Positions 1 through 14,531 of a DNA stretch of 64,000 bases are shown here, piece by piece. This stretch comes from a bacterium (lineage in GTDB: Bacteria; Patescibacteriota; Minisyncoccia; Phycocordibacterales; Phycocordibacteraceae): positions 32,312 through 96,311 of the forward strand of contig JAJZPB010000001.1 in NCBI GenBank assembly GCA_021811365.1. The letters are read 5' to 3'. The notes under the pieces were generated by a model that did no database searches, had not been told where the DNA came from, and saw only the letters and a program-made list of their open reading frames with translations. Position numbers and translations under genes: made by a program. The stretch's first letter is position 1. Every line of letters starts with the position of its first letter.

Positions 1-50
1 ATTAAGGGCGAGGATCAGCGTTGCTGGCCCCGCCCCTTCGTCAAACGGTT

Positions 51-893
51 TTATCGCTCTTTCTTCATGCCTCCGGAGTTTCGTTCGCCGGATTTGCCAC
101 GCATGTCGTTACGAATCTGCCGGTCGCGAGCAGCGCGGGCAGCGAGCCGCTGAGCCCGAGCTGGCTTTGGGCCACCGCGCTGACCTTCCGTGCGCGTCAC
201 CGAAGTTGCAGTACCGAACGCACCAACCGGCGCCATCTTCTTTGTCGCGCCAGCCACACAGTGCTGGTTAAAGAACAGCGCGAGGGCTGGTGAGTGTCGG
301 AGGCCAGAGATGACGTGGGATTTGACCAGCGGCCTGATGTCGCCATCTTGTGCTGCGGCGATGAGCGGAGCGAGCGCTTTGTCGAGAACGGTCGATGATC
401 GCTTGCCGCCAATGGCAACCACGGCGGCGAGCTGGTGATAGTGCCAGTCCCGCAGCTTAACGGAAGCGTCGCCCTCAAGCGAACGCGCTTCCGTCAGGCC
501 GCGAAGCACTTGTACAATGCGCACGTCGGCTTGCTCCTCATTCGAAAGGCGAATCAGCTCGAGTTTGTCACCCTGACGGACAACCCTGCGCACACTGCCG
601 TCTTCGTAGCAGATATCAACGGCATCGCCATTCTTGGTGAATTGGACGAGCGTTTCGGTGCCGCCGTAGGCGACAACCTTACCACTCGAGACGCCTCGCC
701 GGAAGCGTTCCTTGAGATGGACGTGTCCCGGCAAGGGCATCTGCACGTCAATGTGCAGGTAGATTCGAAGCTTACCCCGCTGGCTTTGCCGCGGGGACCT
801 TGGAGGAAAGTCTGAAAACCCTCGGTTTTCAGGTATGCTTCCTGCATGGGCGTCATTCGAAGCAACCACTGCGCATACGATGCGCACTATCAC
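51..893 (-). pseudogene. Metallophosphoesterase-like C-terminal fragment (GHVH motif; possibly SbcD/Mre11-like), 5' end running into the IS200 element
   Basis: ORF translation contains LPGHVHLKE (GHxH motif of calcineurin-like phosphoesterases) followed by ~220 aa and a basic tail. The N-terminal ~40 codons overlap the IS200 left-end hairpins and tnpA start. No phosphoesterase motifs I-IV are found upstream. Confidence 0.3.
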
Positions 894-1400
894 CTCGTCT
901 TTCCGGTCAAATACCGCAGAGCTCTCCTAGAGCCACATATCAGCCGAGCAGTTCTGGATATCGCCAAGGATATCGAAGATCGGTACGACATCACGTTTGA
1001 AAAGATCGGCACCGATGGTGACCACATACACCTGCTCTGCTCTTTCCACCCAAAGTACTCTGGCTCTCAAATAGTCGGAAGGTTCAAAAGCATCACTGCG
1101 CGCGAACTGTTCAGGCGATTTCCAGAATTGCGGAAGAAACTGTGGGGCGGTGAATTCTGGAGCGACGGTTATTATTTAAATACAGTGTCGGAACGGGGAA
1201 ATTGGAAAACAGTCGAGCGCTATGTCGCCAACCAAGGAAAGTCGAGGGAGAAGTCTGTTCAGCTCACGCTCTGGCATTAGCCCATGCATCACGTCATACC
1301 TCGTCCGCTTGCGGCGGGGTTGTTGATTTAACGCCCGTTTGCCCCGCGGTTTGTACCAAGTCAGAACCACACGTAGGAATACTTACGCCGACTATTTCGC
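775..1400 (+). mobile_element. IS200/IS605-family insertion sequence (tnpA only) with subterminal GC-rich hairpins; boundaries approximate
   Basis: tnpA ORF 846-1280. Left-end hairpins ccccgc..gcgggg (785-810) and ctgaaaacc-ctc-ggttttcag (~812-832). Right-end hairpin gcggcgggg..ccccgcgg (~1306-1345). Confidence 0.55.
846..1280 (+). CDS. tnpA: IS200/IS605 family Y1 (HUH) transposase TnpA
   Basis: 144 aa. YHLVFPVKYRR, GDHIHLL (HuH) and catalytic-Tyr region EFWSDGYYLNTV are classic IS200 TnpA signatures. Confidence 0.9.
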   Translation: MGVIRSNHCAYDAHYHLVFPVKYRRALLEPHISRAVLDIAKDIEDRYDITFEKIGTDGDHIHLLCSFHPKYSGSQIVGRFKSITARELFRRFPELRKKLWGGEFWSDGYYLNTVSERGNWKTVERYVANQGKSREKSVQLTLWH

Positions 1401-1421
1401 GGTAGTGAGGCGGTGGACAGT

Positions 1422-1979
1422 TTAACCGTTAAACGCTCCGGCGTGATTGCGCTGGCGCAATAACGACTTCTCTTTTGACCATTGCCACAGCGCTCGGTCG
1501 AGCATGCGCAGGTCAACGCGACTTTCCTTGGCTAGTTTCGAGCAGGCCTCAAGGTATTTAAGGTAGAAATCGACGGTTATCACAGCATTCGTGACGCCAA
1601 GGGCTTGAAGCGCACGAAAGTCGACGATGGTGAACCGTTCAGGGTAGATGGCGGTCACTATCGCGGAAGCCACGGGCACCTGCACGCCTGAGAGACCAGT
1701 GAGGACAGCGATGGCAGCGCGGTCGCTCTTCGCATCGAGAGCGAGCCGCAGAGTATCGGCGACTTCCTCTTCCTTGTTTTCCGCTAGCAGCGTACGTCTA
1801 CGACCACGCGTCTTCCATTCGCAGATGATGGCGAGGTTCTTGAAAGTGTATTGTCCTTTCCGTATGAGTTCTCCTGCCACTAGCGCGTCGGCCTCTCTTT
1901 TGTCGTAATACCTCGTCGCCAATGTCTTTATCTCCAAGGGAGAGAACTGGAGCCGGAAGAGAGGCGTTCTAATAGGCAT
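1422..1979 (-). CDS. Hypothetical protein (possible helix-hairpin-helix-like segment)
   Basis: 185-aa ORF with coherent codon usage. LTGLSGVQVPVASAIVTAIYPERFTIVD resembles an HhH element. No family assignable by eye. Confidence 0.4.
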   Translation of the reverse strand: MPIRTPLFRLQFSPLEIKTLATRYYDKREADALVAGELIRKGQYTFKNLAIICEWKTRGRRRTLLAENKEEEVADTLRLALDAKSDRAAIAVLTGLSGVQVPVASAIVTAIYPERFTIVDFRALQALGVTNAVITVDFYLKYLEACSKLAKESRVDLRMLDRALWQWSKEKSLLRQRNHAGAFNG

Positions 1980-2273
1980 GAGGGGATGCTAGCACGCATC
2001 TGGGATGAGTAAACTGCCATTGCGTTCCCACTTAGCAGGCGCAAACACGGATTGACGAAAGGGGTAGATTTTTGAACTATTTCGCCAAACCGTTGACCAC
2101 GGACTCCACAAAAGTAACAAGAAACTCCTCGGTCACACAACGCAGTTTTCTGCGTTGGCAGAGACCATACAGTTCCTCGACAACAGAGTAAGGGAAGAAG
2201 CGCGTGTTGAGGACCCTGTCTCAAGGCGATTCCCACCAGTGGGGAGGTGGTAAATCAGAGAAAAGCGTACTCA

Positions 2274-2302
2274 TTGACATTTGTATAGTTGCGTGCTAGG
2301 AT
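2274..2302 (+). promoter_or_regulatory. Candidate sigma70-like promoter (TTGACA-17 nt-TAGGAT) upstream of the secreted-protein gene
   Basis: ttgaca at 2274-2279, 17-nt spacer, taggat at 2297-2302, ~40 nt before the ATG at 2342. Confidence 0.35.
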
Positions 2303-2341
2303 ATCGGCAGTACAACAATCGAGCCATCACGGAGGAATCCC

Positions 2342-2833
2342 ATGCTCGCACGTTTGTTCTTTGCCTTCTCGCTGCTCGCTTCGGCTTTCGCCGGCACCGC
2401 GCTCGCGCAAAATACGGTGTCGCCGCCGATGCCCGCGCCCTGGTATGACCATGGGTATACGGGCACGGTGCCGACCACGCTCAAGGCGGCCACCGCGGAC
2501 GAGCGCGCGTTCCTCGGTGCGGACAACGTTGGGTGGCACATGCGCGGCCCCGAGGATGTTTGTGCAGCAATGCACAGCGTCCACCTGGCCTGCGACTACA
2601 ACACCCGCGTCGTCCTGGTGAACTTCCTGAACTACTATGGGAAGGACATCATGCACGGCACGAACCCGTATGTGAACGACCTGCGTAAGCGGGGGGACTG
2701 GTGGTCGTCGGACTTCGATATCTTCATCGGAGAACCGAATCAGAACCACCTGCTCGCTGTCGCCATCCAGCGCAACGAGCGCCTGTTCCATGACGGGAAC
2801 CTGACCGCGGCGGCGGTGAAGCATTGGCGCTAG
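2342..2833 (+). CDS. Secreted hypothetical protein (N-terminal signal peptide)
   Basis: N-terminus MLARLFFAFSLLASAFAGTALAQN is a typical Sec signal. 163 aa. Preceded by a ~360-nt non-coding region. Confidence 0.6.
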   Translation: MLARLFFAFSLLASAFAGTALAQNTVSPPMPAPWYDHGYTGTVPTTLKAATADERAFLGADNVGWHMRGPEDVCAAMHSVHLACDYNTRVVLVNFLNYYGKDIMHGTNPYVNDLRKRGDWWSSDFDIFIGEPNQNHLLAVAIQRNERLFHDGNLTAAAVKHWR

Positions 2834-2947
2834 GAGGAGCGCACAATAACGGGCGACAAGGGACGGCTTACGCTGTCCCTTTTGCTTTGGCACACATTAG
2901 TGAAGTTGCGCGGTATCCACTGGTGCTGCGAAAACACACCTACTTGA

Positions 2948-3322
2948 TTGCCGTTCACAAACCCTCCCTCCTCCCATACATTCACTCCAATGAAGCAAGG
3001 CCACCGCTCAGGCGGCAAGTACGTTTCCAATCACACAACGGTCATTCCTGCAGCAGGAGAACTGTCTGACATAGCAGACCGACAATCAGAAGTAACAAAA
3101 ATATCACTCGACTTCATCAAGGCTGGTCTCCCATCTCTATCAGGGAAGCGTCGTGCCAAGCTCACGGAGCGACAGGGCAATCTATTACTCATGATACGGG
3201 ACAACTCCTCGATGCAGGAAGTCGTGGTGTACACATCCGATCCTTCCAAGACGAAGCGCGCGCTTTATCGGGATGGCAAGAAAGCCAGTATCGAAGTGTC
3301 GTTCGTGAAGCTGGAGAAGTGA
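2948..3322 (+). CDS. Hypothetical protein
   Basis: 124-aa ORF in a lower-GC patch. No recognizable motifs. Confidence 0.3.
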   Translation: MPFTNPPSSHTFTPMKQGHRSGGKYVSNHTTVIPAAGELSDIADRQSEVTKISLDFIKAGLPSLSGKRRAKLTERQGNLLLMIRDNSSMQEVVVYTSDPSKTKRALYRDGKKASIEVSFVKLEK

Positions 3323-3506
3323 GGCTCACTTAGGAGAACCCTTTTGCCCACCCTTCGCGTCTCGCTTCTTGCGTTTCGGTCGACAGACGGGGCACGAACC
3401 GCTGCCACGATACTGGTGTCCTTTGCTCCACATGCTGCACGAAGTCAGAACCTGTGGGCTATGAAAGTTGAAGACCTACCGCAGGACCTCGACTCGGTGC
3501 TGCGTC

Positions 3507-3962
3507 CTATGGGAACGTCTTGATCAAAAGCATTCCAGGACAGTCGTCATCAGGATCGTTGATGGTGCCGTGCTGAACAAAACCGAGGTGCTCATAGAAT
3601 TTCCAAGAATTGCTGTGCGTACCTGGGCTGTAGCATTGGATCTCCGTAAACGACTCACGCTTCGCGCTCTCTTCAATCTTCGCTATGAGGGCGCTGCCTA
3701 CGCCTTCCCCGCTATGTTTTGATGCCACTATGTACAGTTCTGCGGGTTTTTTCGTCTTCGCGTGCGCCTTAAGATATTCTGGTGCGTCTCTATAGCCCGC
3801 AACGCCTACCACCTCGCCCTCTTTCTCCGCAATATAATAACGTCCATTGCGCGTATCAATGTTGTGCGAAAGCTCATTTAAAAATTCGTTGTCATTCCAG
3901 TATTGAGCAAAAATTTTTTCCACGCTTTCCTTGTCTGCGTCTTCGTATTCTCGGATTTTCAT
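3507..3962 (-). CDS. GNAT family N-acetyltransferase
   Basis: 151 aa. GVAGY...ELYIVASKHSGEGVGSALIAKIEE matches GNAT motif A (acetyl-CoA binding loop) ahead of a C-terminal beta strand. Confidence 0.8.
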   Translation of the reverse strand: MKIREYEDADKESVEKIFAQYWNDNEFLNELSHNIDTRNGRYYIAEKEGEVVGVAGYRDAPEYLKAHAKTKKPAELYIVASKHSGEGVGSALIAKIEESAKRESFTEIQCYSPGTHSNSWKFYEHLGFVQHGTINDPDDDCPGMLLIKTFP

Positions 3963-4001
3963 ATTCTAAATTATATCGTGTGCGGTATTTCAAATAGTAC
4001 A

Positions 4002-4027
4002 GTGCCGCGGGGTTGCCCCCGCGGCAC
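4002..4027. repeat. Perfect GC-rich palindrome (11-bp stem, ttgc loop) resembling the IS200-end / REP-like hairpins
   Basis: gtgccgcgggg-ttgc-ccccgcggcac. Shares the ccgcgggg/ccccgcgg arms with the hairpins flanking tnpA at 785-810 and 1306-1345. Confidence 0.5.
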
Positions 4028-4079
4028 CAATCCATCAATAGATGGTCGTCAGACCAGCGCGCGGCATGCCTCGAGCAAG

Positions 4080-4274
4080 ATGGCCGACAGGGAGACTTCG
4101 GCGGCCATGAAGAGGGTCCGGTCCAACCCGCAGGAACTGAAGAAGGCAAGCAGTGAACTCAAGAGCAACTGGGAGAAAATAAAGAACGAAGCAGGGAAAT
4201 CCAAAAAGCGGGTAGGGAAGCCAGTAAAGAAAGCCGCTATGAAGGTAACCGCAAAGCGGGGGCATAAAAAGTAG
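4080..4274 (+). CDS. Small lysine-rich basic protein (64 aa)
   Basis: MADRETSAAMKRVRSNPQELKKASSELKSNWEKIKNEAGKSKKRVGKPVKKAAMKVTAKRGHKK. Internal ATG at 4080 of the longer track ORF, whose upstream part is AT-rich non-coding. Confidence 0.4.
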   Translation: MADRETSAAMKRVRSNPQELKKASSELKSNWEKIKNEAGKSKKRVGKPVKKAAMKVTAKRGHKK

Positions 4275-4302
4275 TCGAAGGGCAATCTTGTTTGCGCCCT
4301 TG

Positions 4303-4420
4303 GCTGGACACGTTCAGAACTCTGGACTGCCCACAGATCGAGAGGGAACTGGAGGATGTGGGCTTTGTATAAAACGAAAACCGCTCCTTCATCGCAAGAC
4401 GAAGGTTTGGTTTTCGTCTT
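4303..4420. repeat. Structured intergenic repeat, copy A (GTTCAGA-AC-TCTGGAC inverted repeat ... TTTGTATAAAA ... nested terminator-like hairpin)
   Basis: Aligns with copies at 5801-5910 and 6455-6570. Shared blocks are ggacacgttcagaactctg.actgg, gagagggaa.tggagg.g.ggg.tttgtataaaa.gaaaaccgc, and a hairpin with A- and T-tracts. Confidence 0.7.
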
Positions 4421-4630
4421 GCAGAAGAGGTCGTCAACAGTTCGTGTGTGAGGCCCCTCGCACTTATGGCGCTATAGTCGTGCGCGACGACCAGGAGGGC
4501 ATTGGGGGTGGTCCTTGACCCGATAGGTGGGCTGGACGGTTTGGCACGCGGGGCACAGCTCACGTATGTAGTCGCCTACGCAGAATGAAATAGCCGTCCT
4601 TGTGGAAGGGACGGCTATGCCAGAATGAGT

Positions 4631-5233
4631 TCACAAGATCGGAATAACTGCCGATGCTGTTATGCGCCATGAGGCACCGCGCCAGACAGATAGCAGATAT
4701 TCCTCGCTCCAAGCCGCATTTCCTATCGCTAGAACTGGAGAGTATGCCCTCACGTTGGGTATCCTGTCGTCCATTACAAAGTAAAGGCCATCTTCAAAAC
4801 CTGCGATGACCACAATATGTGCCGCGACGGTTGCTGTTGGATTCGTCCGTACCCAGATCGCAATAGGTTTATCGGCATTGCGCCTGAGAAACTCCAGACG
4901 GTCCGCGAGCGAAACCCGATGAATTTCCGTCAGGATTCCAAATTCACCCAACCCAGCTTTCATCATTTTGGGAAATTCAGGGTGGAACAATTGCCAAGCG
5001 AGTCCACGACGCGGAATTAAATCTACAGGTTTGCCCAACCGTGTGGCCACGAACCTTTCGCAATCCTCTCCGCAGAACGGTGGGTGGCGTAGAACAAAAT
5101 CAGGAACTTTGCCGAGTTTTACCAACAGAACCTCCTGCTGTCGCAGTTGCCCATTACTACAGTAACGTATAACCTGTATGCTGTCAAGGTTTGGCTCGGT
5201 ACATTCAACCTCCAAGTGCAACGCCCACCTCAC
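4631..5233 (-). CDS. Putative papain-like/C39-like cysteine peptidase (BtrH-like)
   Basis: 200 aa. An N-proximal Cys-containing segment (PFCGEDC), a downstream AAHIVVIAGFEDG...VMDD His/Asp block resembling the peptidase_C39-like GHxVV motif. Confidence 0.35.
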   Translation of the reverse strand: MRWALHLEVECTEPNLDSIQVIRYCSNGQLRQQEVLLVKLGKVPDFVLRHPPFCGEDCERFVATRLGKPVDLIPRRGLAWQLFHPEFPKMMKAGLGEFGILTEIHRVSLADRLEFLRRNADKPIAIWVRTNPTATVAAHIVVIAGFEDGLYFVMDDRIPNVRAYSPVLAIGNAAWSEEYLLSVWRGASWRITASAVIPIL

Positions 5234-5800
5234 GCAAGTTCGAATCCCACCAGCCCGGCGGGAAGCATCTTGCTGGGTAGGGAAGTAGGAGTATATAGCT
5301 GTTCGTTTGCTCTCAGACCATATCGTTAATATAACTTCGGCATAAAACAGAAGACCGCCTCACCGAGACGACCCGGTGGGCGATCTCTGTGTGAAGGCGG
5401 TAAGGCCGAAGCTCAGATCGCTTGAGAATTCGAAGGCCGAGCGTTTGCTGTCCTCCCAAGCCTCAAGATGCTGTCGGCTTTTGCAACTTTGTCTGGCGTA
5501 GGGCCAAGCTGTGCAGCGGTCCTGTCTCGTTATTCGCATTTCGCTTGAACAAAACCCCGCATGAACGCGGCGTGCTCGGCGCGGTGTAGGGTGTGTTTTG
5601 GCTCTCTGTCAATGAAGGCTGGAAGTGCGGCGACATACACCCCTTGGCTTACGTATATCGCCAGTCGATGTCGCATGCGTCGTTGACGCCACCGACGGAC
5701 CCATCCGGCTATTGACATGGTGAGTGTCTCCTCTGCTGTCTAAGCATAGTGTGCCACAAAGGGCACCAGGATTCCACGATTCAAGAACATTTTCCCCGTA

Positions 5801-5910
5801 CTGGACACGTTCAAAACTTTGAACTGGCCACCAGCGGAGTGTCTATGCTTGTATAATGAAGAAAAACCGCCACTCCGTCGCGAGACGAAGCTTTGGTTTT
5901 TCGTCTCGCC
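5801..5910. repeat. Structured intergenic repeat, copy B (GTTCAAA-AC-TTTGAAC inverted repeat, tataat, hairpin)
   Basis: Same architecture as copies A and C. Compensatory changes in the inverted repeat (caaa/tttg versus caga/tctg). Confidence 0.7.
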
Positions 5911-5919
5911 GAGAGGCGG

Positions 5920-6429
5920 TTAGTTGGTGCTGCCTGTCGTTGCGAGCACTTGTTTCCTATGTTTTTCCAGCAGAAACGTCAGAAGCATGTGCCCCTTCAA
6001 TCCCGAGAGATTGTTGGACGGTACGGGTTCGATCGGACCGATTGTCTCGCAGAGCACTTTTTTCATCTGCTCGACACAGTCCGACCCGCTTCCCTTAGCC
6101 ACCTTGGCCATGAACCCCACTCCCGCGAGCAGGAACCAGCCAGTGTGAACGATCGGCCCCATCTTTTCGCAGAGAGAGGCCACGCCGTCTCCTTGCGATG
6201 ATTTTACATGCGCCAGCCACCCTGAGGTTTCGACGTCACCACTCCATTCAACATACGCCCCCTCATGTTCCCCGAGTGGGAAGCGATACATGGGATCGGT
6301 TACCGCAAACACCACTTCGTCGTGGTGATCGTGGGGTATCACCCCATGCGTGAGCAAAATCGGAAAGTCCTTCATTGCGATACCCTCCAGGAAGGTGAAC
6401 AACCAGCTGGACAATGAATACCACGACAT
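5920..6429 (-). CDS. Hypothetical protein (169 aa)
   Basis: Coherent ORF. Its stop codon directly abuts repeat copy B. Confidence 0.5.
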   Translation of the reverse strand: MSWYSLSSWLFTFLEGIAMKDFPILLTHGVIPHDHHDEVVFAVTDPMYRFPLGEHEGAYVEWSGDVETSGWLAHVKSSQGDGVASLCEKMGPIVHTGWFLLAGVGFMAKVAKGSGSDCVEQMKKVLCETIGPIEPVPSNNLSGLKGHMLLTFLLEKHRKQVLATTGSTN

Positions 6430-6454
6430 TTCATCTTTGTCAGCTCCCCATTGT

Positions 6455-6570
6455 GGCCAAGTTCAGAACTCTGAACTGGGCGCAGGTTGAGAGGGAAGTG
6501 GAGGTGGTGGGGTTTGTATAAAATGAAAACCGCCCCTTCGCACGAAACGAAGGGTTGGTTTTCGTTTCGT
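6455..6570. repeat. Structured intergenic repeat, copy C (perfect GTTCAGA-AC-TCTGAAC inverted repeat ... TTTGTATAAAATG ... hairpin)
   Basis: Aligns with copies A and B. The hairpin cccttcg-cacgaaa-cgaaggg is flanked by aaaacc/ggtttt. Confidence 0.7.
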
Positions 6571-6582
6571 TGAGTGAGGCGA

Positions 6583-6813
6583 TTATACGCTGATGACTTC
6601 GCCGCGAGGGCCGTACACCATGACCATGGCCATGAACATCGTCATGCCGCAGCTCGTGTGACTGGTCGACGCGATTGCGGCTGCGGCACCATTGAAGCCA
6701 GCTTCCGTCAGGCGTCTCCTAATATCATCCTCCGACTTGGAAGATGCGACGATGCGTTTGGCGACCGTTTCTGCTTCGTCGGTCGTCATTTCGTTGAAGG
6801 GTTTTTGGGACAT
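6583..6813 (-). CDS. Small hypothetical protein (76 aa)
   Basis: The ORF stop abuts repeat copy C. A TTGACA-17-TACATA promoter-like element lies ~80 nt upstream on the minus strand. Confidence 0.4.
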   Translation of the reverse strand: MSQKPFNEMTTDEAETVAKRIVASSKSEDDIRRRLTEAGFNGAAAAIASTSHTSCGMTMFMAMVMVYGPRGEVISV

Positions 6814-6981
6814 CGTTCTAGCGTCCTTCCGGGCGAGGTAGAATTAAGGGACGAAGCGGACGGACTGCCCGCATCTGATTGTTTATGTAGCACGACAGAA
6901 TACATTTGTCAAGTTTGCTCCCCATGTTGCACGAAGTAAGAACCTATGCACCTGCGATTTAAACAAATAAAGAACCGCCCT

Positions 6982-7410
6982 TCACGGGCGGCTCCAGCCG
7001 AGACGTAGCCTTGCTAGTTCGCGCACTTCCTTCAGGTCTTTTTGTCCCTCTCTGGGGTATTTTGCAAATTCCTCCAGCAGGTCCTGTGGACATACGGGAT
7101 TGTTTACAAGCGCCATGCAGATGTACCAGTGGCGCTCGGTCGCGACTTCACGATGCTGGTCGAGCGTCACACGGACGCTTGCGGCAACGGCTTGACGCAG
7201 TACCCAATTCGAGGACCGTAACGCCTTGGTGGCAAGTTCTTGTATAAAGGCATCCGGAATGGCGGGAGAAGTATTACCGATGACGCTCGCGCGTACTGCG
7301 TCGTCCGGATCGCAGCCCAGTTTGCGGAGCTCGTCGCCAGGCGTATGGACGCTCGACGCTCTCCTCACTCGCTCGTATCGAGTCCCGTCTGACTTATCTG
7401 CGTAGCTCAT
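6982..7410 (-). CDS. Hypothetical protein (142 aa)
   Basis: ORF followed on the minus strand by a hairpin terminator (ccgccc-ttca-cgggcgg at ~6968-6990). Overlaps the next gene by 17 nt. Confidence 0.5.
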   Translation of the reverse strand: MSYADKSDGTRYERVRRASSVHTPGDELRKLGCDPDDAVRASVIGNTSPAIPDAFIQELATKALRSSNWVLRQAVAASVRVTLDQHREVATERHWYICMALVNNPVCPQDLLEEFAKYPREGQKDLKEVRELARLRLGWSRP

Positions 7411-7651
7411 AGTACATTGCCTCGCTTTTCAGGCCGCGTTTGCGGCCAGCTTCCTTCTCTTTGTGATCCAGGTAGATGACCCGCTCGGAGTCCACAACAC
7501 TGAACCCTGGGCAGTTCCGGAGGGACACAGTTCTTTTCTTTCTTCCCTCGAGCGTCCCGTACGACTGGGGTGATGCTATACGCCCGGCTCGGCATTTCTG
7601 CTTGCGGTGCTCTATGGCGGAGCGACCGCAGTGCTGGCACAGTTCATTCAT
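7394..7651 (-). CDS. Hypothetical zinc-ribbon-like small protein (85 aa)
   Basis: A CQHCG...C cysteine pattern near the N-terminus. Translationally coupled to 6982-7410. Confidence 0.4.
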   Translation of the reverse strand: MNELCQHCGRSAIEHRKQKCRAGRIASPQSYGTLEGRKKRTVSLRNCPGFSVVDSERVIYLDHKEKEAGRKRGLKSEAMYYELRR

Positions 7652-7790
7652 GGGTCTACTCCACAGTTTCCTACCGAAACCTAGCTAAACGGAGGAGAGG
7701 AGTCAATGCCAAGCCGCTAGTCGGACATGAAGGCAATAAAACAGTAGACCGCCCTCACCGAGACGAACCCAGTGAGGGGCTGGTCTTCGG

Positions 7791-8066
7791 TCAGGCGGGT
7801 TCCAGTTTGAAGTGCTGCTCGGGCTTCGTATCGTCGGCGGGCCAGATGACGCCATATCCGCGCTCTTTCCACCACGCATTGGCGAGTGGCGTTACGTGGC
7901 GTGCCCATTCGGCAACGCGCACGTCGACTTCCGCACGCTCATCTGGGCACATGAGTTCGAGCACCTTCTTGGAGGTCACCCGCTTCGTTTCGAGCCAGGC
8001 CGTTCTCAGTTGTTCAATGTAGGCGCGGTAGTCCGGGCATAGTTGCTCAAAAGCCGTTTGGTCCAT
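7791..8066 (-). CDS. Hypothetical protein (91 aa)
   Basis: ORF followed on the minus strand by a hairpin plus TGTTTTATT terminator (7745-7790). Confidence 0.45.
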   Translation of the reverse strand: MDQTAFEQLCPDYRAYIEQLRTAWLETKRVTSKKVLELMCPDERAEVDVRVAEWARHVTPLANAWWKERGYGVIWPADDTKPEQHFKLEPA

Positions 8067-8153
8067 CGTCTAGTGCAAGCCAAATGTGATAGACTGCCGG
8101 TTGGAGCATCTGCACTGCGCAGAAGCGCGTCATACAATGGAAAGGGCAGCAGC

Positions 8154-8855
8154 ATGTTGATTTATGCGCCTCCGGAACTTGCGGCGCGTGCCTCGCGCCT
8201 TGTCGCTGAAACTGGTGTGGCTATGGTAGATCCAGACGGGTGGTTTACTTACACGGGAGGGATTCGCAGTCCGGTGTACCTGCAAATCCGTGACCTGACT
8301 AAATATGCGCCACAATGGATGGAAGTTGTGCGGTGCATGGCGGAGTTCATCCGATGGGCGATGACTGACGCTGTTAGCGGAAGTCAGCGCATACCGGAGC
8401 CGATGAAAGGGGTGTACGGAGTTCCTGAAGGGGCAACGCTCCTTTCCGGTGCACTTGCGTACGAGCTTGGAGTAGGTGCCATACGTATCCATCAAGAAAG
8501 GAAAGCGTATGGCATAGGGCAGACTTTATTCGGTATCCGCCCCTTCGAACAAGCTTGTGTCCTTGAAGACACGAGCTCCACCGGTACAGCTGTTGTCGCA
8601 AAGGGTGTTGCGCCACTCCGAGCATGTGGGGTGCGCGTTGAACACGCATTTCTCTTCGCTTCTCATGGCCTCGGAGTTGCCGAAACATTTGAGAGATGCG
8701 GGGTCACCGGCTTCTGTCTGTGCCGATCAGAGGATATATTTGGCCATGTTCTTGAACGCTCACAACACGACGAGCGAACACGGAGAATCGTCAGAGCATG
8801 GTTCGAAGACCCTGAGACTGCCTCGAACGCCTACGTCGTCTCGCATCCAGCGTAG
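8154..8855 (+). CDS. pyrE: Phosphoribosyltransferase, orotate PRTase (PyrE)-like
   Basis: Start taken at the ATG at 8154, preceded by ggaaaggg. TYTGGIRSPVYLQIRD matches the PyrE PRPP/orotate loop, and VLEDTSSTGTAV matches the PRTase type-I PRPP-binding motif. Confidence 0.6.
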   Translation: MLIYAPPELAARASRLVAETGVAMVDPDGWFTYTGGIRSPVYLQIRDLTKYAPQWMEVVRCMAEFIRWAMTDAVSGSQRIPEPMKGVYGVPEGATLLSGALAYELGVGAIRIHQERKAYGIGQTLFGIRPFEQACVLEDTSSTGTAVVAKGVAPLRACGVRVEHAFLFASHGLGVAETFERCGVTGFCLCRSEDIFGHVLERSQHDERTRRIVRAWFEDPETASNAYVVSHPA

Positions 8856-8920
8856 TGGGAGGAAACGCTTGTTCGAAAATACGCCGCATCTACTCGACCT
8901 ACATTGAGAGCGCCGTTTCC

Positions 8921-8956
8921 ACGGCGTGATTACCCCAATCACGCTGTGCTTTTTAT
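8921..8956 (+). terminator. Rho-independent terminator after the pyrE-like gene
   Basis: acggcgtgatt-acccc-aatcacgctgt forms an 11-bp stem, followed by gctttttat. Confidence 0.6.
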
Positions 8957-9299
8957 CCCATCCATGCGAGGCATTGTACCGACGCAGACGAAAGCTATTT
9001 TGTAGCGGCAGAGACAGTGTTAAACCTCGGTTAAACCTCGCAAAGCGAGCCCTCGAGATCTTCGAGAGTTCGGAAGTGCTCGAGAAACGAGCCCTTCTCA
9101 ACGTCTTATTTCAGAGCTCGGTTGTGGACGGAAAAACCCAGTGTTTGCACTGCGTCCTCCCTTTGACACTATCCTCACCTTGACTAAACAACCTACTCTG
9201 CCCCAGGCCATATCGTTAATATAACTGTGGTGTAAAAAAGAAGGTCTTCTCGCCGTTGCTTGTGACGAGAAGACCAACGCAGGTTCTAGGTGTGCGAAC

Positions 9300-10526
9300 T
9301 CACTTCATGCGGTTGAGTAACGCAGCTTTTGCAGCAAGTTCTCTTTCGTACTGACTTGCATGCCGGTGCGCCAGTTCTCCAGCCGCCGTCGTGTAGTCGT
9401 CGAGGAGCGCTTGCAGGCGTAACGAGAGCTGAGGGTCCCCTTTGCCGACTTTCCTGAGAAGATACCGGATGAAGTCGCATTTATCGTGCCTATTTATGTC
9501 ATCCGGATTGATCCTCACGAACTCGCGAGTGCCAAGCGCTTGCCGAATTATGGCAAACCGCAACGGACGCAGGTCAGGCGTCCCGAAGGTGGTGTCGAGA
9601 AGACGACGCGCTACTCCGTACAGCGTGCCCCGGCTCCTGTTCTCCTGGAGCCAGTTTTTGTCCCCGAGTTCTGCCGCGTGTTCCAAAGTGAACGCGGCTT
9701 GTGTCGCAAGGAGTTCCCGGCTATAGGGCAGGTTCTCCATGCGCGCACACTCCACAACGCGCTTGAAGTAGAAGACGTATGGGGAAGACTGAAGAGGGCG
9801 GGATGCCGTCTCCCTCTGCAGAACCTCCTGGCGCATGAGCGCGTTGCCCCTTTGCTTCCATTCTTCCGGCACAGCTGCGGTCAACAGGAGTGCAAAGGAT
9901 TGGTACACGTACATGTAGCCATTTGCGCCGTCCACAGGAACTGTTGCTTCGAGATGAAGACTCTTGAAGAGACGCTCCAGCTGCTGCCCGTCCTCCCTGT
10001 ATAGCTCCATGAGGAAGATGATCCACGTGTTGTAGACGAAGATGTGGCCATTACGGTGATCGTGCGCGGACAGGTCCGAGCAAGGGGCTTCAGCAAGGAT
10101 CTTGGCGCTGTACACCAAAAGATCCGTCAGAAAGGCACGCAGATGGGGGGTGAGCGCCTCAGCAACGCGTTCCCGATGTTCCGGCACGAGATCCCCAAAG
10201 CAGGTGTGACTCCAAAGACCGGAGTAAACCCAGTGCCCGCACAGAGGTCGGAGGGACCGCTTACCGAATGGGTAATAACTGTCACCTCCGTACCCATAGA
10301 ACGGCACTAAGCTCTGCGCTAGGCCTCGGGCCTTGAAGGCCGGGTTGATGTCAGGGTTTTCGAGCAAGCTGTAGAGGCGATCGTCAACCCCGAGGTACTC
10401 TTCGAACAGAGCGTTCCCCGTCCTTTCAGCTTCTTCCGTCAGGCCGAAGTGGAATCGCAGCAGTTTGCGCACCGCATTGCGATAGCGCAGGGCATTGCGT
10501 TGTTCAGTTGTCTGAGCAAAAGCCAC
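9300..10526 (-). CDS. Hypothetical protein (408 aa)
   Basis: Long coherent ORF, followed on the minus strand by a ggtcttctcg/cgagaagacc hairpin plus T-tract terminator (9228-9275). No recognizable motifs. Confidence 0.55.
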   Translation of the reverse strand: MAFAQTTEQRNALRYRNAVRKLLRFHFGLTEEAERTGNALFEEYLGVDDRLYSLLENPDINPAFKARGLAQSLVPFYGYGGDSYYPFGKRSLRPLCGHWVYSGLWSHTCFGDLVPEHRERVAEALTPHLRAFLTDLLVYSAKILAEAPCSDLSAHDHRNGHIFVYNTWIIFLMELYREDGQQLERLFKSLHLEATVPVDGANGYMYVYQSFALLLTAAVPEEWKQRGNALMRQEVLQRETASRPLQSSPYVFYFKRVVECARMENLPYSRELLATQAAFTLEHAAELGDKNWLQENRSRGTLYGVARRLLDTTFGTPDLRPLRFAIIRQALGTREFVRINPDDINRHDKCDFIRYLLRKVGKGDPQLSLRLQALLDDYTTAAGELAHRHASQYERELAAKAALLNRMK

Positions 10527-10723
10527 AGCACGACTCCTTTGTGTTGTTGTGAAAGGATCTGGGCGGCCTTTTTATGGTAAGTATACGGCCACTTTGGTCC
10601 GGTCAAATTAGTACCAAAAAATACGAAATTGTCAATTAGGCGTATTGGTTCACCTATTCGCGCGCTCCCCTGGGGAGCAGGACCTACTCAGGCAGGGAAG
10701 TGGGAGTATATTAAAGTTCTTTT

Positions 10724-10785
10724 GCTCCGCATGTAGGTCATTGTTCTAACCTAGATTTAGAGGCAAGAAAGGGTATTTCTAAGCA
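10724..10785. repeat. Imperfect direct repeat, left copy (attL-like), flanking the AT-rich island
   Basis: tgctccgcatgtaggtcattgttctaacctaga...aggcaagaaagggtatttc aligns with 13184-13245. Confidence 0.6.
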
Positions 10786-10840
10786 TCAATGGCTCTTATC
10801 TATTTGTTCCAATCATCACGAAAACTGCTACGATGAAAGT

Positions 10841-11350
10841 ATGGGAAAGAAGAACAATTCAGAACATAATCCACTCAAAGAAGCATATGCGCTTTTGCAA
10901 GTATCTTCCTCGAGCGAGCTAGCTCGCGAGTTTATTAAAGAAGACCAAAGGCTCTTAAAAGCACAAATCTGGGATTACAAAAAGTCAGGACTTGTTTTAA
11001 ATATAGTTAAAGAAATAGTTGAATCTGCCATTGATAATGAGTTTACAACACGTGATAAGGACAGTGAGGATGTTTTAAAAACCATTTTATGGTTTTGGTA
11101 CCATCATGCTATCGGATATGCAATCTGGGGTTATAAAGATAAGGCGGAAGCGCTCGAGTTTTCTTCAAAGGCGCTCAAGTACCAGACTTCTGATAATCCA
11201 AATAAAATCACGCGTTTACTCTACCTCTTGGTTCGCGACGAAGAGAAAGACGCGGCTCTTTGGTTGGAAACTATCGTCAATGAACCAGATAAAACTGCTT
11301 CTCACGGAATAATGAAAGAGTATTTGGATGGAAATTTCTTCAAACCCTGA
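10841..11350 (+). CDS. Hypothetical protein (169 aa) encoded in the low-GC island
   Basis: AT-rich codon usage distinct from the surrounding genome. Trp/Tyr-rich helical protein with no assignable family. Confidence 0.55.
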   Translation: MGKKNNSEHNPLKEAYALLQVSSSSELAREFIKEDQRLLKAQIWDYKKSGLVLNIVKEIVESAIDNEFTTRDKDSEDVLKTILWFWYHHAIGYAIWGYKDKAEALEFSSKALKYQTSDNPNKITRLLYLLVRDEEKDAALWLETIVNEPDKTASHGIMKEYLDGNFFKP

Positions 11351-11460
11351 GTTCAATAAGTAAACGCAACACTTCCGCTAATCTAGTTGATATTTCTTAT
11401 TATAACATATAGTATCCCTTTTGGATGGAGGGCCCTCTGTCTATGTAGTGTAAAAGGAGA

Positions 11461-11655
11461 TTGACAGTGGCTAAATCGAACGCTTTAAGGAAGGTGGATG
11501 TCTCAGCTACCGCTCCGCTCATGTTGCGGCGCGTTACTACAAAACCACTAACGATTATTCCCATGATGAACATGACTGTCGTTTCATCGCCTGGCAGACT
11601 TCCTGAAATGAGTGATCAGGTGGGTGACACGACTGCACCAAGGCACGATCGGTAA
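11461..11655 (+). CDS. Small ORF (64 aa), a weak candidate substrate peptide for the adjacent ATP-grasp ligase
   Basis: Convergent with the ATP-grasp gene. The C-terminal half is rich in T/S/D/E (TVVSSPGRLPEMSDQVGDTTAPRHDR). Coding status uncertain. Confidence 0.15.
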   Translation: MTVAKSNALRKVDVSATAPLMLRRVTTKPLTIIPMMNMTVVSSPGRLPEMSDQVGDTTAPRHDR

Positions 11656-11726
11656 GTTCGAATAAGTAGAAATAAGGCCGGAGCAGTGATGCTCCGGCCT
11701 TATATATTTGCTCAAAACTACAGATT

Positions 11727-12770
11727 TCAAAGCGACTTGAGCATGCTTGCGACAGCTTGCGGAATCGATAATTCTGCGTAGTGTTCAATCCACCCCCATT
11801 GCCCGCAAGGGTTTACTTCAAGAAAGACGTATTCTCCATTGGGCATTTCTATGAGATCAATTGCGCCGTAGTTTAATTCAATTTTCCGCATGAAGCGAAG
11901 TAAGTGCTTCTGAACTATAATTGGGAGTTCGACACGAATGTGTTCAACATTGTCGAAGTCGTAGTGACGCCAATCAGTCCTTGTCATTGAACTTGCTTGA
12001 GAGTCAATCCGACATGCCAAGACCTGATTGCCTATTACCATAACCCTGTACTCGTAACGTTTCTCAACGTATTGTTGCGCAAAGAGAGGACATGCTTGTA
12101 TTGCGTCTGGGCTGTTGAGTAACTCCTCATGCGAGAATCGCTCGGAATACAAGAAGTCATTACCAGCCGCGTCCAATTTCATATAGCCAAGCGTTTTTAG
12201 AAGAAGGCCATTTTCTTTTGTGGAAAAGGCCATAACACTTTCTGGATCATTGCTGATGATGGTTTGCGGAGTCTTGAGCCCGCAGCGTTGCGCAATTTGC
12301 TGCTGATACAATTTGTTACTGGAAACGCGGACGATGCTTTCTTTCCGGTTAACCCATTTGCAATCAAGAACAGATACGAACGATAGAAATGCACATCGCG
12401 ATTCATTTTCCGCAAAACGTATTTCCAAGGACGCATCAGCCTCTCGCGCATCATCACTGCTCTCGCGTATATACCACGCAACATCGATGTCTCGGATCTG
12501 AAGACGAGCTTCCACAAGTTCTTGCTCGACATATTTCAGCACATCGATGAACCCAAGAACAGAACCGGAATCATCAAGTGCCATATGTATAACGGCCTGA
12601 TCGAGGATTCGACCCGGGTCAAAGACATAGACACACAGACCTACTTCTATGCATGGAGCAACGAAGGCGTCGTAGTAATAACGCTCACTGAGGCTAGCTA
12701 CAAACAGAACATTTTTCACGAGCGTTCTCCCTTTCATGGATCGATGAATCGTCCAAAGAAAAGGATACAA
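11727..12770 (-). CDS. ATP-grasp family ligase (RimK/MdnC-like)
   Basis: 347 aa. YEYRVMVIGNQVLACRIDSQ...RTDWRHYDFDN...GAIDLIEMPNGEYVFLEVNPCGQWGWI matches the ATP-grasp C-terminal core, including the E-x-N Mg-binding motif. Confidence 0.8.
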   Translation of the reverse strand: MYPFLWTIHRSMKGRTLVKNVLFVASLSERYYYDAFVAPCIEVGLCVYVFDPGRILDQAVIHMALDDSGSVLGFIDVLKYVEQELVEARLQIRDIDVAWYIRESSDDAREADASLEIRFAENESRCAFLSFVSVLDCKWVNRKESIVRVSSNKLYQQQIAQRCGLKTPQTIISNDPESVMAFSTKENGLLLKTLGYMKLDAAGNDFLYSERFSHEELLNSPDAIQACPLFAQQYVEKRYEYRVMVIGNQVLACRIDSQASSMTRTDWRHYDFDNVEHIRVELPIIVQKHLLRFMRKIELNYGAIDLIEMPNGEYVFLEVNPCGQWGWIEHYAELSIPQAVASMLKSL

Positions 12771-13183
12771 CGAATCTAATGTTTTTCAATAGTTCATAGC
12801 TGACGACTTTGAAACTATTAACTGGGCTAAGGAGTATCCCGCGCCGGACTTCACGATACAGCAAATCAAGGCGGGTTCCGGCCGACATTGGTGGAGCGGA
12901 CGCCGCACGCATCGAGGAGATCAAAGGCACCCCCTCAATCTGATTGTGGGAGTGGCCGAAGTATTCCGTAGTGGCAATATAGAGGAGAAAAAGGAGGCTC
13001 TTCCAGAGCCCGGTTAGAACCTAGAACTCAAAGGCAAAAAACTCAGTGTTTCCACCAAGAAAGACCTTGAGGTGACTTCAAAAAGCTTTCTTGCGGTACG
13101 TGCGTAAAATCCGGTGTTTGAACCTAGAAATTGTGAGGCAGATAAAGACGAAACGGAGGCTTTCGCCTCCGTTCGTCCAGTCT

Positions 13184-13245
13184 TGCTCCGCATGTAGGTC
13201 ATTACTCTAACCTAAGGACGCGAGGAAGAATAAGGGTATTTCAGA
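13184..13245. repeat. Imperfect direct repeat, right copy (attR-like), flanking the AT-rich island
   Basis: tgctccgcatgtaggtcattactctaacctaagga..gaggaagaataagggtatttc aligns with 10724-10785. Confidence 0.6.
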
Positions 13246-13327
13246 GTCTTCGAGCCACGGGTCGGCCTGTTGAGACACTCGCGCCCCAGAGGACCACAGC
13301 AGGCCACAAGAGAGGTATGATGGGAGC

Positions 13328-14044
13328 ATGTCTCCAGACGAGATCGGGAAAGCGGCAATCGACTTTGCCAAGAAAAACAAGAATAAGATCGCCAATGAGC
13401 TCACCGACCTCAGCCGCTTCGTACCGGATGATCATCCGATTTCTGTGTTTATGGCGGGGTCACCGGGTGCGGGTAAGACCGAGTTCTCAAAGGAACTTCT
13501 CGGCATATTGGAGGCAGATGACCAACGTAAGGTGGTGCGTATTGATGGCGATGATATACGCGAGCGTATGCCGGGGTATGTCGGCAACAATTCGGCCTTG
13601 TTTCAAGGCGCAATTTCCATAGTAGTTGAGAAGATTCACGACCTCGTACTCGACAAGAAACAGAGCTTTATTCTCGATGGAACGTTCTCGAAATACGATA
13701 AGGCCGCGGACAACATTCGGCGTTCATTGCGCAAGAACCGAATCGTCTTTATTTTCTACGTCTACCAAACGCCCCATACCGCGTGGCGGTTTACTCAAGC
13801 CCGCGAGCGCCTCGAGGGGAGAAACATACCAAAGTCTGCCTTTATCGAGCAGTTCTGCGGGGCTAAGGAAACAGTCGAGCGGCTACATCGAGAGTTCACG
13901 GATAAAATAGTACTCTTCTTGGTGAAGAAAGACTTCAGTACGAGCGCAACTGAGGAGGTGGTAAAAATGATTGATCCAGCCACGTCGATTGACTCATATA
14001 TCGGCGAGCGATACACTAAAGAAGAACTTGAGAAATCACTATGA
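13328..14044 (+). CDS. Zeta-toxin family kinase (PezT/zeta-like, P-loop)
   Basis: 238 aa. The Walker A motif VFMAGSPGAGKTEF and the VVRIDGDDIRE motif are characteristic of zeta toxin UNAG kinases. Confidence 0.75.
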   Translation: MSPDEIGKAAIDFAKKNKNKIANELTDLSRFVPDDHPISVFMAGSPGAGKTEFSKELLGILEADDQRKVVRIDGDDIRERMPGYVGNNSALFQGAISIVVEKIHDLVLDKKQSFILDGTFSKYDKAADNIRRSLRKNRIVFIFYVYQTPHTAWRFTQARERLEGRNIPKSAFIEQFCGAKETVERLHREFTDKIVLFLVKKDFSTSATEEVVKMIDPATSIDSYIGERYTKEELEKSL

Positions 14045-14253
14045 AATGGCTTACAAAAATACTACGAAATGACGAACCTGAGGCGACAACTGTCGCTCGC
14101 ACGCCGTACATGAGCGAGTATAACGGCCTTTCGGATTTTCTTCGCAATGCTCCACAGCAAGAAAAGATTGATGTTTTTACAGAAGCTGCAAAACGTGCAA
14201 GCGAAGATCAAAGACGAACGCTTGAGAGGGCCAGAGTTCTGCACTCCAGCTAA
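14041..14253 (+). CDS. Small hypothetical protein (70 aa) overlapping the zeta-toxin stop by 4 nt (ATGA)
   Basis: Translational coupling to the zeta-like gene. Acidic/helical sequence. Possible cognate antitoxin in a non-canonical (downstream) position. Confidence 0.35.
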   Translation: MKWLTKILRNDEPEATTVARTPYMSEYNGLSDFLRNAPQQEKIDVFTEAAKRASEDQRRTLERARVLHSS

Positions 14254-14326
14254 AAACTAAAGAGCGTCACCCTCGGGTGACGCTCTTTAGTGTGCCTGTC
14301 TCCAGGCGTAACATACATTGCCCAGT

Positions 14327-14398
14327 ATAGGCTAGCTCCGCGGGTAGGATTCGAACCTACGACCAATCGATTAACAGTCGACCGCTCTACCACTGAGC
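14327..14398 (-). tRNA. tRNA-Asn (anticodon GTT)
   Basis: The reverse complement folds as a cloverleaf: acceptor tccgcgg/ccgcgga, D-arm gctc-agtggta-gagc, anticodon stem gtcga/tcgat with loop ctGTTaa, and T-arm gtagg-ttcgaat-cctac. CCA is not encoded. Confidence 0.85.
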
Positions 14399-14531
14399 TA
14401 CCGCGGAATGCGTCTTTGCCAACAAGAGAATGCAAGAGGCCCTTCTCGGCACGCCTCTCAAAGAGGCATGGGCATTGTAGCGGAAAAAGTTAGCAACGCA
14501 AAGGGCGGAAAAGGTTTGGTATAGTGCGCGT

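Follow-up and report, generated by a model that had tools for sequence, protein, structure and literature searches.

The 64,000-nucleotide stretch analysed here (hereafter the window; contig JAJZPB010000001.1, positions 32,312 to 96,311, from a bacterium of the Patescibacteriota) carries three copies of a short repeat beside small genes. An earlier note on this DNA had described three homologous copies, each made of an inverted repeat (part i), a conserved block (part ii) and a nested hairpin between A- and T-tracts. Three such copies are indeed present: an exact search of the + strand gives three occurrences of GTTCARAACTYTGRAC where chance would give 0.17, copies A and C are 82% identical across 113 nucleotides with copy B more diverged, and the mean column identity of the three-way alignment is 77%. 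The nested hairpin was found in all three copies. Block (ii), GAGAGGGAA.TGGAGG, is found in A and C and is missing from B, where a 13-nucleotide deletion lies. The boundaries first given were too narrow, since homology runs further on both sides; on the left, about 15 additional nucleotides (GCTCCCC or GCGCCC) are part of the repeat. The whole repeats thus span 4289-4436 (A), 5789-5922 (B) and 6438-6582 (C). A tRNA-Asn (GTT) gene lies on the minus strand at 14335-14407, and the genes to its right are core genes (redoxin, Fmt, MurA). We estimate a probability of about 80% that the three repeats are the leftover ends of mobile elements inserted serially behind tRNA-Asn by a large serine recombinase (LSR), each ~130-bp repeat being the distal (attR-side) end of one integrative element at the tRNA-Asn 3′ end. 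Below, L-numbers (L002 to L038) designate comparison loci and P-numbers (P0127 etc.) recombinase proteins.

Short repeats at positions 1338, 3422, 6914, 10722 and 13183, together with the left parts of copies A, B and C, align to the tRNA-Asn 3′ end (AGGTTC ... GGAGC). All these pseudo-tRNA sites have the orientation of the tRNA-Asn gene, and the eight of them divide positions 1-14334 of the window into modules. In each copy, the left part is a 28-nucleotide site imitating the tRNA end, at 4294-4321 in A, at 5791-5818 in B and at 6443-6470 in C, where the minus strand reads AGTTCTGAACTTGGCCACAATGGGGAGC. The other sites, also on the minus strand, are located at 1341-1368, 3425-3452 and 6917-6944 (repeat family D6) and at 10724-10751 and 13185-13212 (family D4). 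They match only the T-arm/acceptor part of the tRNA, with five extra nucleotides, and neither ARAGORN nor Rfam recovers a full tRNA cloverleaf at any of them, the window yielding only tRNA-Asn and a tRNA-Glu. In the comparison loci L007, L016, L018 and L020, the AGGTTC...GGAGC motif lies 12 to 42 nucleotides from the same hairpin, and in L007 and L016 a real tRNA-Asn gene stands just upstream. In L007, the last 27 nucleotides of the real tRNA-Asn also recur exactly as a direct repeat (tRNA at 3439-3511, repeat at about 3615-3642), with the spacing of a B-type site and ~105 nucleotides downstream of the tRNA. This repeat precedes a hairpin-bearing module, and a T-arm/acceptor fragment of another tRNA is found further on.

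The five extra nucleotides have a fixed place. From GGTTC to the junction, 23 nucleotides are counted in real tRNA-Asn genes and 28 in ten out of ten aligned pseudo-sites from the window, L007 and L016. The intact attP sites of L026 and L028 also show 28. In serine integrase sites, attP has the motif of the zinc-ribbon domain 5 bp further from the crossover than attB does and is the longer site by about 10 bp (Rutherford et al. 2013, PMC3783163). Because the 23- versus 28-nucleotide spacing reproduces this published offset, we infer that GGTTC is the zinc-ribbon-domain motif, that the B half-site is provided by the real tRNA end and that the pseudo-tRNA is the P half-site carried by the element. 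The tRNA-Asn gene heads the array and would bear attB, its last bases ..CCTACCCGCGGAGC comprising B half-site and junction. Reading the repeat as a promoter or 5′ leader, or the pseudo-sites as copies of host tRNAs that have decayed, was abandoned in view of the +5 alignment and the recombinase C-termini described below.

The earlier note had considered the hairpin not to be protein-coding, and this holds. On the + strand, parts (i) and (ii) of each copy are a coding remnant, the last ~25 codons of an LSR gene, the stop codon in A and C being the TAA within TTTGTATAAAA. The orphaned codons lie at 6438-6521 in copy C (CQLPIVAKFRTLNWAQVEREVEVVGFV, then the stop) and at 4289-4372 in copy A (CLRPWLDTFRTLDCPQIERELEDVGFV, then the stop), whereas in copy B (5789-5855) the tail ..VLDTFKTLNWPPAE.. 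is degraded and frameshifted by the 13-nucleotide deletion. The frame corresponding to the LSR tails reads LPIVAKFRTLNWAQVEREVEVVGFV in copy C (LPIVAKFRTLNW..) and RPWLDTFRTLDCPQIERELEDVGFV in copy A (RPWLDTFRTLDC..), both up to the stop codon. At site 6914, the frame LLPMLHEVRTYAPAI (LLPMLHEVRTYA..), also closed by a stop, nearly equals the C-terminus of the intact LSR P0172 (LLRMLNDVRTYA). Site 3422 has an unsplit LSR end on the + strand, ..YWCPLLHMLHEVRTCGL followed by a stop, and L009 has a homologous tail, ..YRTLDWRQIEKELDELSFV, also terminated. A longer remnant adjoins the pseudo-site at 13185: positions 12934-13194 (+) hold the last ~86 codons of an LSR gene (..FASVRPVLLRM, then the stop), with 42% identity and an E-value of 2e-12 in tblastn, 8e-24 with P0211 and 1e-13 with the tail profile.

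The recombinase family comprises 757 members at E <= 1e-10, mostly 565 to 605 amino acids long, with three kinds of C-termini. In the first (..CPTLLRG and similar), the open reading frame (ORF) stops within the tRNA after integration. In the second (..LLREQDSNLQPTP..), it reads through the opposite strand of the real T-loop. The third has long tails, as in P0141 (..CPTLLPLLDAFRTLNWNK.., that is ..CPTLL-PLLDAFRTLNW..), P0173 (..LLALLKDFRTLDW..) and P0172. When tblastn was run with 120 LSRs, the 86-codon remnant was the only match and the 25-codon tails went undetected. An LSR-tail profile run on 7,808 peptides from all six frames gave the highest ranks to the predicted sites, in the strands and frames predicted. 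A DNA profile of the pseudo-sites matches intact LSR genes, within their 3′ ends, in L026 (E = 2.4e-7) and with less significance in L028 (E = 0.005). The second kind of C-terminus, shown by many database recombinases (P0127, P0128, P0156, P0176, P0185 and others), is the opposite-strand translation of a tRNA T-loop, so that the annotated C-termini of such recombinases were created by integration.

Substitution patterns also follow the reading frame. Between copy A and L009, 14 differences fall on third codon positions as compared to 8 and 8 on the other two. Seven codon changes are synonymous in the proposed frame, versus 0 to 3 in other frames. In the tails of L016, L018 and L020, one serine position is, on our reading, coded by TCA, AGC and AGT. 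Since parts (i) and (ii) encode the LSR tail, the inverted repeat, GTTCAGAACTCTGAAC, spans the codons TTC AGA ACT CTG AAC of the peptide F-R-T-L-N (positions 6461-6476 in copy C encode part of it). The inverted repeat had been proposed as a selected stem or dimer-binding site on the strength of compensatory substitutions between copies. In copy B, the pair of changes exists at the DNA level; in the reading frame, AGA to AAA replaces arginine by lysine and CTG to TTG is a synonymous leucine change. No selection for a stem is required, and the proposal is not supported. The intact homologous gene of L026 encodes the same five residues by TTCAGAACCCTTAAT, without a palindrome.

The junctions could be located by comparison with relatives. 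Syntenic loci were fetched by means of the redoxin gene. L021, whose redoxin is 98% identical, matches the window from 16000 to 14335 and then continues directly with window positions 6921-5198 at 99% identity. The 7,413 extra bases of the window (6922-14334) sit exactly at the last bases of the tRNA, where homology to L021 breaks at 14335, and GGAGC is common to both junctions. With a slash marking the junction, the segment is bounded by the tRNA end GGAGC/TAGCC on the left and by the pseudo-tRNA ..GGGGAGC/AAACTTGACA on the right, its distal end being the site at 6917-6944. The attB-like sequence of L021 reads ..CCCGCGGAGC/AAACTTGACAAATG, the left junction of the window ..CCCGCGGAGC/TAGCC and its right junction ..CATGGGGAGC/AAACTTGACAAATG. 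L038, from another sample, carries the window haplotype at 100% identity. Hence the comparison with relatives for gain or loss at module boundaries, which the earlier note had proposed, shows a close relative differing exactly at such a boundary.

Occupied and empty sites are found elsewhere as well. In L023, a 565-residue resolvase-family protein (PF00239) abuts tRNA-Asn, its ORF ending within the tRNA (..CPTLLRG, then the stop), and is followed by methyltransferase and ParB-like genes. Within one species, the site is empty in L031 and L033, while L032 and L034 hold two different LSRs (PF00239, PF07508 and PF13408) starting right after GGAGC. The tRNA junction is thus where, at the occupied sites of L023, L032 and L034, genes for LSRs (resolvase, recombinase and zinc-ribbon domains) start. 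L025 shows yet a different island at its tRNA-Asn site. In L028/L029, an element at 10092-13791 on a contig of Candidate Phyla Radiation (CPR) type has an intact recombinase together with TraG/VirD4-like and VirB4-like genes, a hint that recombinases of this family serve a conjugative element.

A second haplotype difference was observed between the same two relatives. Window positions 766-5197 (4.4 kb; copy A, a GNAT gene, a DUF2103 gene and an IS200-type element) correspond in L021 to 12983-14323 (1.3 kb), which holds an unrelated 208-residue gene, and identity resumes at 100% over 765-1. Homology stops exactly at 5198, where 5198-5265 (+) holds a piece that resembles a tRNA or P arm but is oriented the other way (AAGTTCGAATCCCACCAGCCCGGCGGGAAGC; minus-strand frame LPAGLVGFELA, then a stop). 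The piece recurs in L021 at 12940-12982, 13895-13940 and 15948-15987 and seemingly marks a second kind of recombination boundary.

Position, homology and spacing together point to an LSR as the enzyme that probably made these junctions, and a course of events can be proposed from the sequences. In this element family, the recombinase ORF would run across attP, so that integration would sever the last ~25 LSR codons. The free element would have the order recombinase ORF, P′, crossover, P with the tail codons, stop codon, hairpin and a convergent cargo gene; this convergent layout of recombinase and cargo is seen in L027 and L028. After integration, the recombinase gene would end up beside the tRNA. 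Its tail would remain at the far end of the element, overlapping the attP half-site, a 28-nucleotide imitation of the tRNA T-arm and acceptor strand, and the terminator that the recombinase gene shared with the last, convergent cargo gene would stay with it. Repeated integration at one tRNA, each time followed by loss of most of the element, would then leave the order tRNA, module, P, module, P and so on. Where the end of an older recombinase lies behind a P site, the two combined resemble an attP, as seen at 13185 and 3425. The order of these events and the manner in which recombinase genes were lost are presumptive. Overall, a known kind of process is at work, here in a variant with a tRNA 3′ end as target and a mimic of it on the element, an attP within the recombinase ORF and hosts of CPR type.

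Several points weigh against this interpretation. An insertion in the window and a precise excision in L021 are indistinguishable, though the 7,413-bp event is site-specific in either case. The identity at the junctions (GGAGC, and up to 8 nucleotides in some loci) exceeds the 2-bp core of LSRs and would suit a tyrosine recombinase too. Taken singly, the tail matches of the three copies have weak E-values (0.04 to 1.6), which is normal at a length of ~25 residues. A by-eye comparison of P with P′ gave 13 matches out of 29 in L023, and no convincing dyad symmetry was seen by eye in the reconstructed attP or attB. No intact LSR gene with the exact tail of A and C (..QVEREVEVVGFV, then the stop) was found, a protein search with the concatenated tails being empty. 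Nor was an intact LSR gene followed by the hairpin family of the repeat, the three intact LSR loci examined all having other terminators. Finally, two of the modules, described below, have no recombinase remnant save ~12 nucleotides of possible P′, and simple decay has to be assumed several times.

The hairpin closes the repeat on the side of the cargo genes. On the minus strand, it occupies 6519-6582 in copy C, behind the gene at 6583-6813, and 5856-5922 in copy B, behind the gene at 5920-6429. It is flagged as terminator-like on both strands in C and on the minus strand in B. A gap of 10 to 13 nucleotides between repeat and stop codons, as first described, does not exist, since the outer stem of the hairpin abuts the stops. 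Copy A had been described as following the + gene at 4080-4274, which it merely adjoins. On the side of its hairpin (4370-4436, minus strand) there is no intact minus-strand ORF upstream (4437-4630); the cargo gene of copy A is therefore degraded or absent.

When one genome per species was scanned with exact patterns, seven metagenome-assembled genomes (MAGs) labelled Paceibacteria, Kaiserbacteria, Parcubacteria or Saccharibacteria proved to carry the hairpin, and a metagenome scan added 13 further stretches, one of them a chance match and several duplicates. Three scans of viral contigs with element patterns returned no match. The suggestion that further copies would be tied to gene 3′ ends is borne out by at least 13 other distinct Parcubacteria-type MAG loci, all beside the 3′ end of a gene. 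In all seven genome loci, and likewise in the window for B and C, a small gene on the opposite strand has its stop codon directly against the hairpin. An all-against-all BLASTP comparison showed these nine genes to be unrelated to each other, so that descent with a single gene family does not account for the hairpin.

In the nested fold, all 14 pairs are kept in 18 sequences (100% of cells). The U-G wobbles are valid only on the strand of the cargo gene, as they would be A-C mismatches on the other, and on the cargo-gene strand a TTTTC(T/A)TTTT tract follows. Full pairing, strand-specific wobbles, the T-tract and the terminator flags together argue for an intrinsic (Rho-independent) terminator of the cargo gene, predicted to be usable both ways. 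A longer alternative fold of 19 pairs was discarded, being 88% paired with covariation no greater than that of shuffled alignments. In L002, L004, L014 and L019, a P-arm-like site lies ~10 nucleotides from the hairpin and mimics the 3′ end of a tRNA-Gln (GGTTCCAACATCGTCCCAGACCCCCAGC). Its orientation is opposite to that of the window copies, and by eye it also seems 5 nucleotides longer than the tRNA end; the tRNA-Gln gene of L019 lies at 1730-1801. As the hairpin stands on the host-flank side of the junction in these four loci, it is not exclusive to the element side. Another family of small terminator-like repeats (..ATATCGTTAATATAAC..AAAACAGAAGACCGCC..) is present in the window at 5314-5378, 7736-7774 and 9204-9255, and generic terminators in these genomes also start with AAAAGAAAACCGCCCC (e.g. 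L005, 2543-2594).

The cargo genes themselves are small. The gene at 6583-6813 (minus strand) encodes 76 residues; a TTGACA-17-TACATA sequence upstream of it was not relied on as a promoter, the second hexamer having no T at position 6. The gene at 5920-6429 (minus strand) is listed with 169 residues and likely starts at the ATG at 6375, after GGAGGG. Neither protein matches a family, searches with Pfam, PADLOC and PHROGs gave nothing informative, and an exact look-up of the 169-residue protein found no record. The two corresponding modules measure only ~470 and ~650 bp, with a junction at both ends. These small modules, comprising a short P′-like start, one gene, its hairpin, a tail and a P half-site, might be true non-autonomous cassettes captured and moved by a recombinase encoded elsewhere, a serine analogue of the integron or of a recombinase-less staphylococcal cassette chromosome (SCC), which would refine the LSR interpretation rather than replace it. 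The distant locus L016 (GC content of 50%) has the same layout after its own tRNA-Asn, and its start, GGAGC/AAACTTGACAAA, is common with the 76-residue module. Moreover, the 46-nucleotide core of the hairpin is ~95% identical among 15 loci outside the window that carry unrelated cargo genes, while the flanks are only ~50% identical, and no parent element with this hairpin was found. The value of 95% is inflated, as these loci were retrieved by exact patterns inside the core. Termination does not fully explain the strong conservation of the hairpin sequence. On the other hand, no circular copy or copy in an alternative context was seen for any cassette, and the 76-residue gene occurs only in two haplotypes of one locus. 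The similarity to P′ is also short (~11 of 16 nucleotides by eye), where LSR half-sites normally require 20 to 25 bp. We regard the cassette explanation as rather unlikely. Tentatively, a gene-capture system based on serine recombinases could operate at tRNA-Asn in Parcubacteria-type bacteria, with minimal cassettes inserted, and perhaps excised, in trans by the recombinases of co-resident elements. Such a cassette might consist of one cargo gene, the highly conserved 46-nucleotide hairpin and the 28-nucleotide tRNA-mimic half-site. If this were true, the hairpin would have a sequence-specific role beyond termination.

A different enzyme class is an improbable source of the pseudo-tRNA sites. 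Islands at tRNA genes are for the most part the work of tyrosine integrases, and the tRNA 3′ end is left behind as direct repeats (PMC4383910); the sites would then be displaced host tRNA ends that have since decayed, and the exact 27-nucleotide duplicate in L007 fits that description. However, the pseudo-sites of three unrelated genomes all exceed the real tRNA end by exactly 5 nucleotides, which independent decay would not produce, and the same 28-nucleotide arrangement is found within intact LSR genes. In addition, no tyrosine integrase was detected in the window island, among ten extra candidate ORFs or at the occupied sites, where LSRs are found instead. The Pfam search behind this result covered 30 ORFs, namely the island ORFs and the ten candidates elsewhere in the window, and returned no integrase, about 36 more ORFs of at least 100 amino acids falling outside the scan.

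A further possibility is that the whole unit is a structured RNA, either a 3′ untranslated region element or an independent small RNA kept for its fold. This is very unlikely. The copies do form more stable folds than shuffled sequence does (z = -2.5 to -6.4), the hairpin is perfectly paired with some two-sided changes, and one G-U pair in the inverted repeat of copy A would be compatible with a + strand RNA. Against this, Rfam reports only the two tRNAs at gathering score in the window and, over 3900-7100 with E-values up to 5, a single chance-level snoRNA match, and no sigma-70 promoter was called on either strand of the repeat. Outside the hairpin, conservation tracks the reading frame, which is open in A, C and L009 with the same TAA end, and the inverted repeat is absent from L009 as it is from the intact gene with the same peptide. 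RNA-like behaviour is thus limited to the hairpin, as a minus-strand terminator.

Integron-type cassettes with divergent attC sites, or hairpins of repetitive extragenic palindrome (REP) or miniature inverted-repeat transposable element (MITE) type moved by the IS200-type Y1 transposase encoded at 846-1280, are scarcely credible: despite the cassette-array look of genes each followed by a conserved structured 3′ element in one orientation, and despite a Y1 transposase gene 3 kb away beside a pseudo-site, there is no R″/R′ core (RYYYAAC/GTTRRRY) at the hairpin ends (..CTAACCGCC and GGCGGTTTTC.. on the gene strand) or in the inverted repeat (GTTCARA/TYTGAAC), no IntI among the 30 ORFs scanned, and no terminal inverted repeats or target duplications, the IS200 end hairpins are unrelated to the repeat, the copies occur only at att junctions, and the polymorphic junction lies at the tRNA end and not at the hairpin. 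Overall, the repeats belong neither to an integron array nor to a family of structured RNAs. The description of the locus as modules bounded by recombination sites was right in spirit, since each module ends in a conserved site-specific recombination site. The likeness to integrons and attC is not supported, the implicated enzyme being an LSR and the target the tRNA-Asn 3′ end.

Other features of the window complete the picture. The Y1 transposase gene (846-1280, +; PF01797, E = 5e-35) has its own end hairpins at about 790-845 and 1290-1370, and this IS200-type copy is inserted directly beside the pseudo-site at 1341-1368, which lies at its right end. The module nearest to the tRNA contains as its sole genes a zeta-toxin gene (13328-14253, +; PF06414, E = 4e-40) and an overlapping 70-residue ORF, and looks like a toxin-antitoxin module without recombinase. 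In the core region, the diverged repeats at 19403-19506 and 24338-24441 belong to two MreB-like genes (by synteny with L021), and those at 27678-27743 and 34961-35026 to paralogous ORFs of 642 and 577 residues, which we take, from one motif only, to be candidate penicillin-binding proteins.

The nearest analogues are serine-integrase att sites, SCC-type composite islands and tandem tRNA islands. Large serine integrases (A118/LI, Bxb1, phiC31; PMC3783163) are alike in that an enzyme with resolvase, recombinase and zinc-ribbon domains adjoins the att site, that host and element sites are short and non-identical with the element half-site 5 bp longer, and that integration is unidirectional and leaves hybrid sites. 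In contrast, the target here is the extreme 3′ end of a tRNA, and the element half-site mimics the T-arm and acceptor strand. Moreover, the ORF would cross attP, its last ~25 codons being exchanged for two to four from the opposite strand of the tRNA, and the hosts are Parcubacteria-type members of the CPR. Composite islands of the SCCmec and pseudo-SCC kinds, which occupy the 3′ end of rlmH (orfX), are made by the serine recombinases CcrAB. They also arise by serial integration at the 3′ end of a conserved gene, forming tandem arrays split by site repeats, with recombinase-less members beside members that have one. The present array shares serial integration at one site, the tandem arrangement and members with and without a recombinase. 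It differs from SCC in recombinase clade, target and host, in its much smaller modules, down to a single gene, and in the recombinase-tail remnant and conserved terminator present in every module. The integrase gene of SSV1, a tyrosine recombinase, likewise has attP within its ORF and is split by integration, near the middle of the gene. Here the enzyme is of the serine type and only a short C-terminal tail is detached. Like integron cassettes, the modules are small, often with a single gene, and have one orientation and a conserved recombination-related end element. Unlike them, they have no attC core or bulged hairpin, no IntI and no attI, a tRNA-Asn heads the array, and the hairpin is probably a terminator outside the half-site. 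Cis-mobilizable elements and the tRNA-repeat islands of Prochlorococcus can be grouped with tandem tRNA islands. Tandem tRNA islands (Islander and TIGER; PMC4383910, PMC9580842) resemble the locus in being tRNA-bounded and variable, with tRNA-3′-end-like repeats in one orientation and occupied as well as empty alleles. Such islands typically depend on tyrosine integrases and their repeats are true copies of the tRNA end, whereas here the repeats are element-borne mimics, 5 nucleotides longer, inside a serine-recombinase frame.

The feature is thus of an ordinary kind, unusually well resolved in this case. What had been an unexplained structured repeat becomes a readable record of serial integration, and attB, attL and attR are resolved to the base pair for a large uncharacterised clade of CPR serine recombinases. 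The published 5-bp offset between attP and attB is visible in natural sequence data at many loci. Candidate attB/attP pairs are obtained, which may serve for instance as genetic tools for organisms that have none. Annotators should be aware that integration can produce both odd recombinase C-termini (..LLRG before the stop, ..DSNLQPTP..) and the short conserved "repeats" found next to tRNA genes. Finally, the recombinases of this clade appear to target a tRNA end by mimicking that end.

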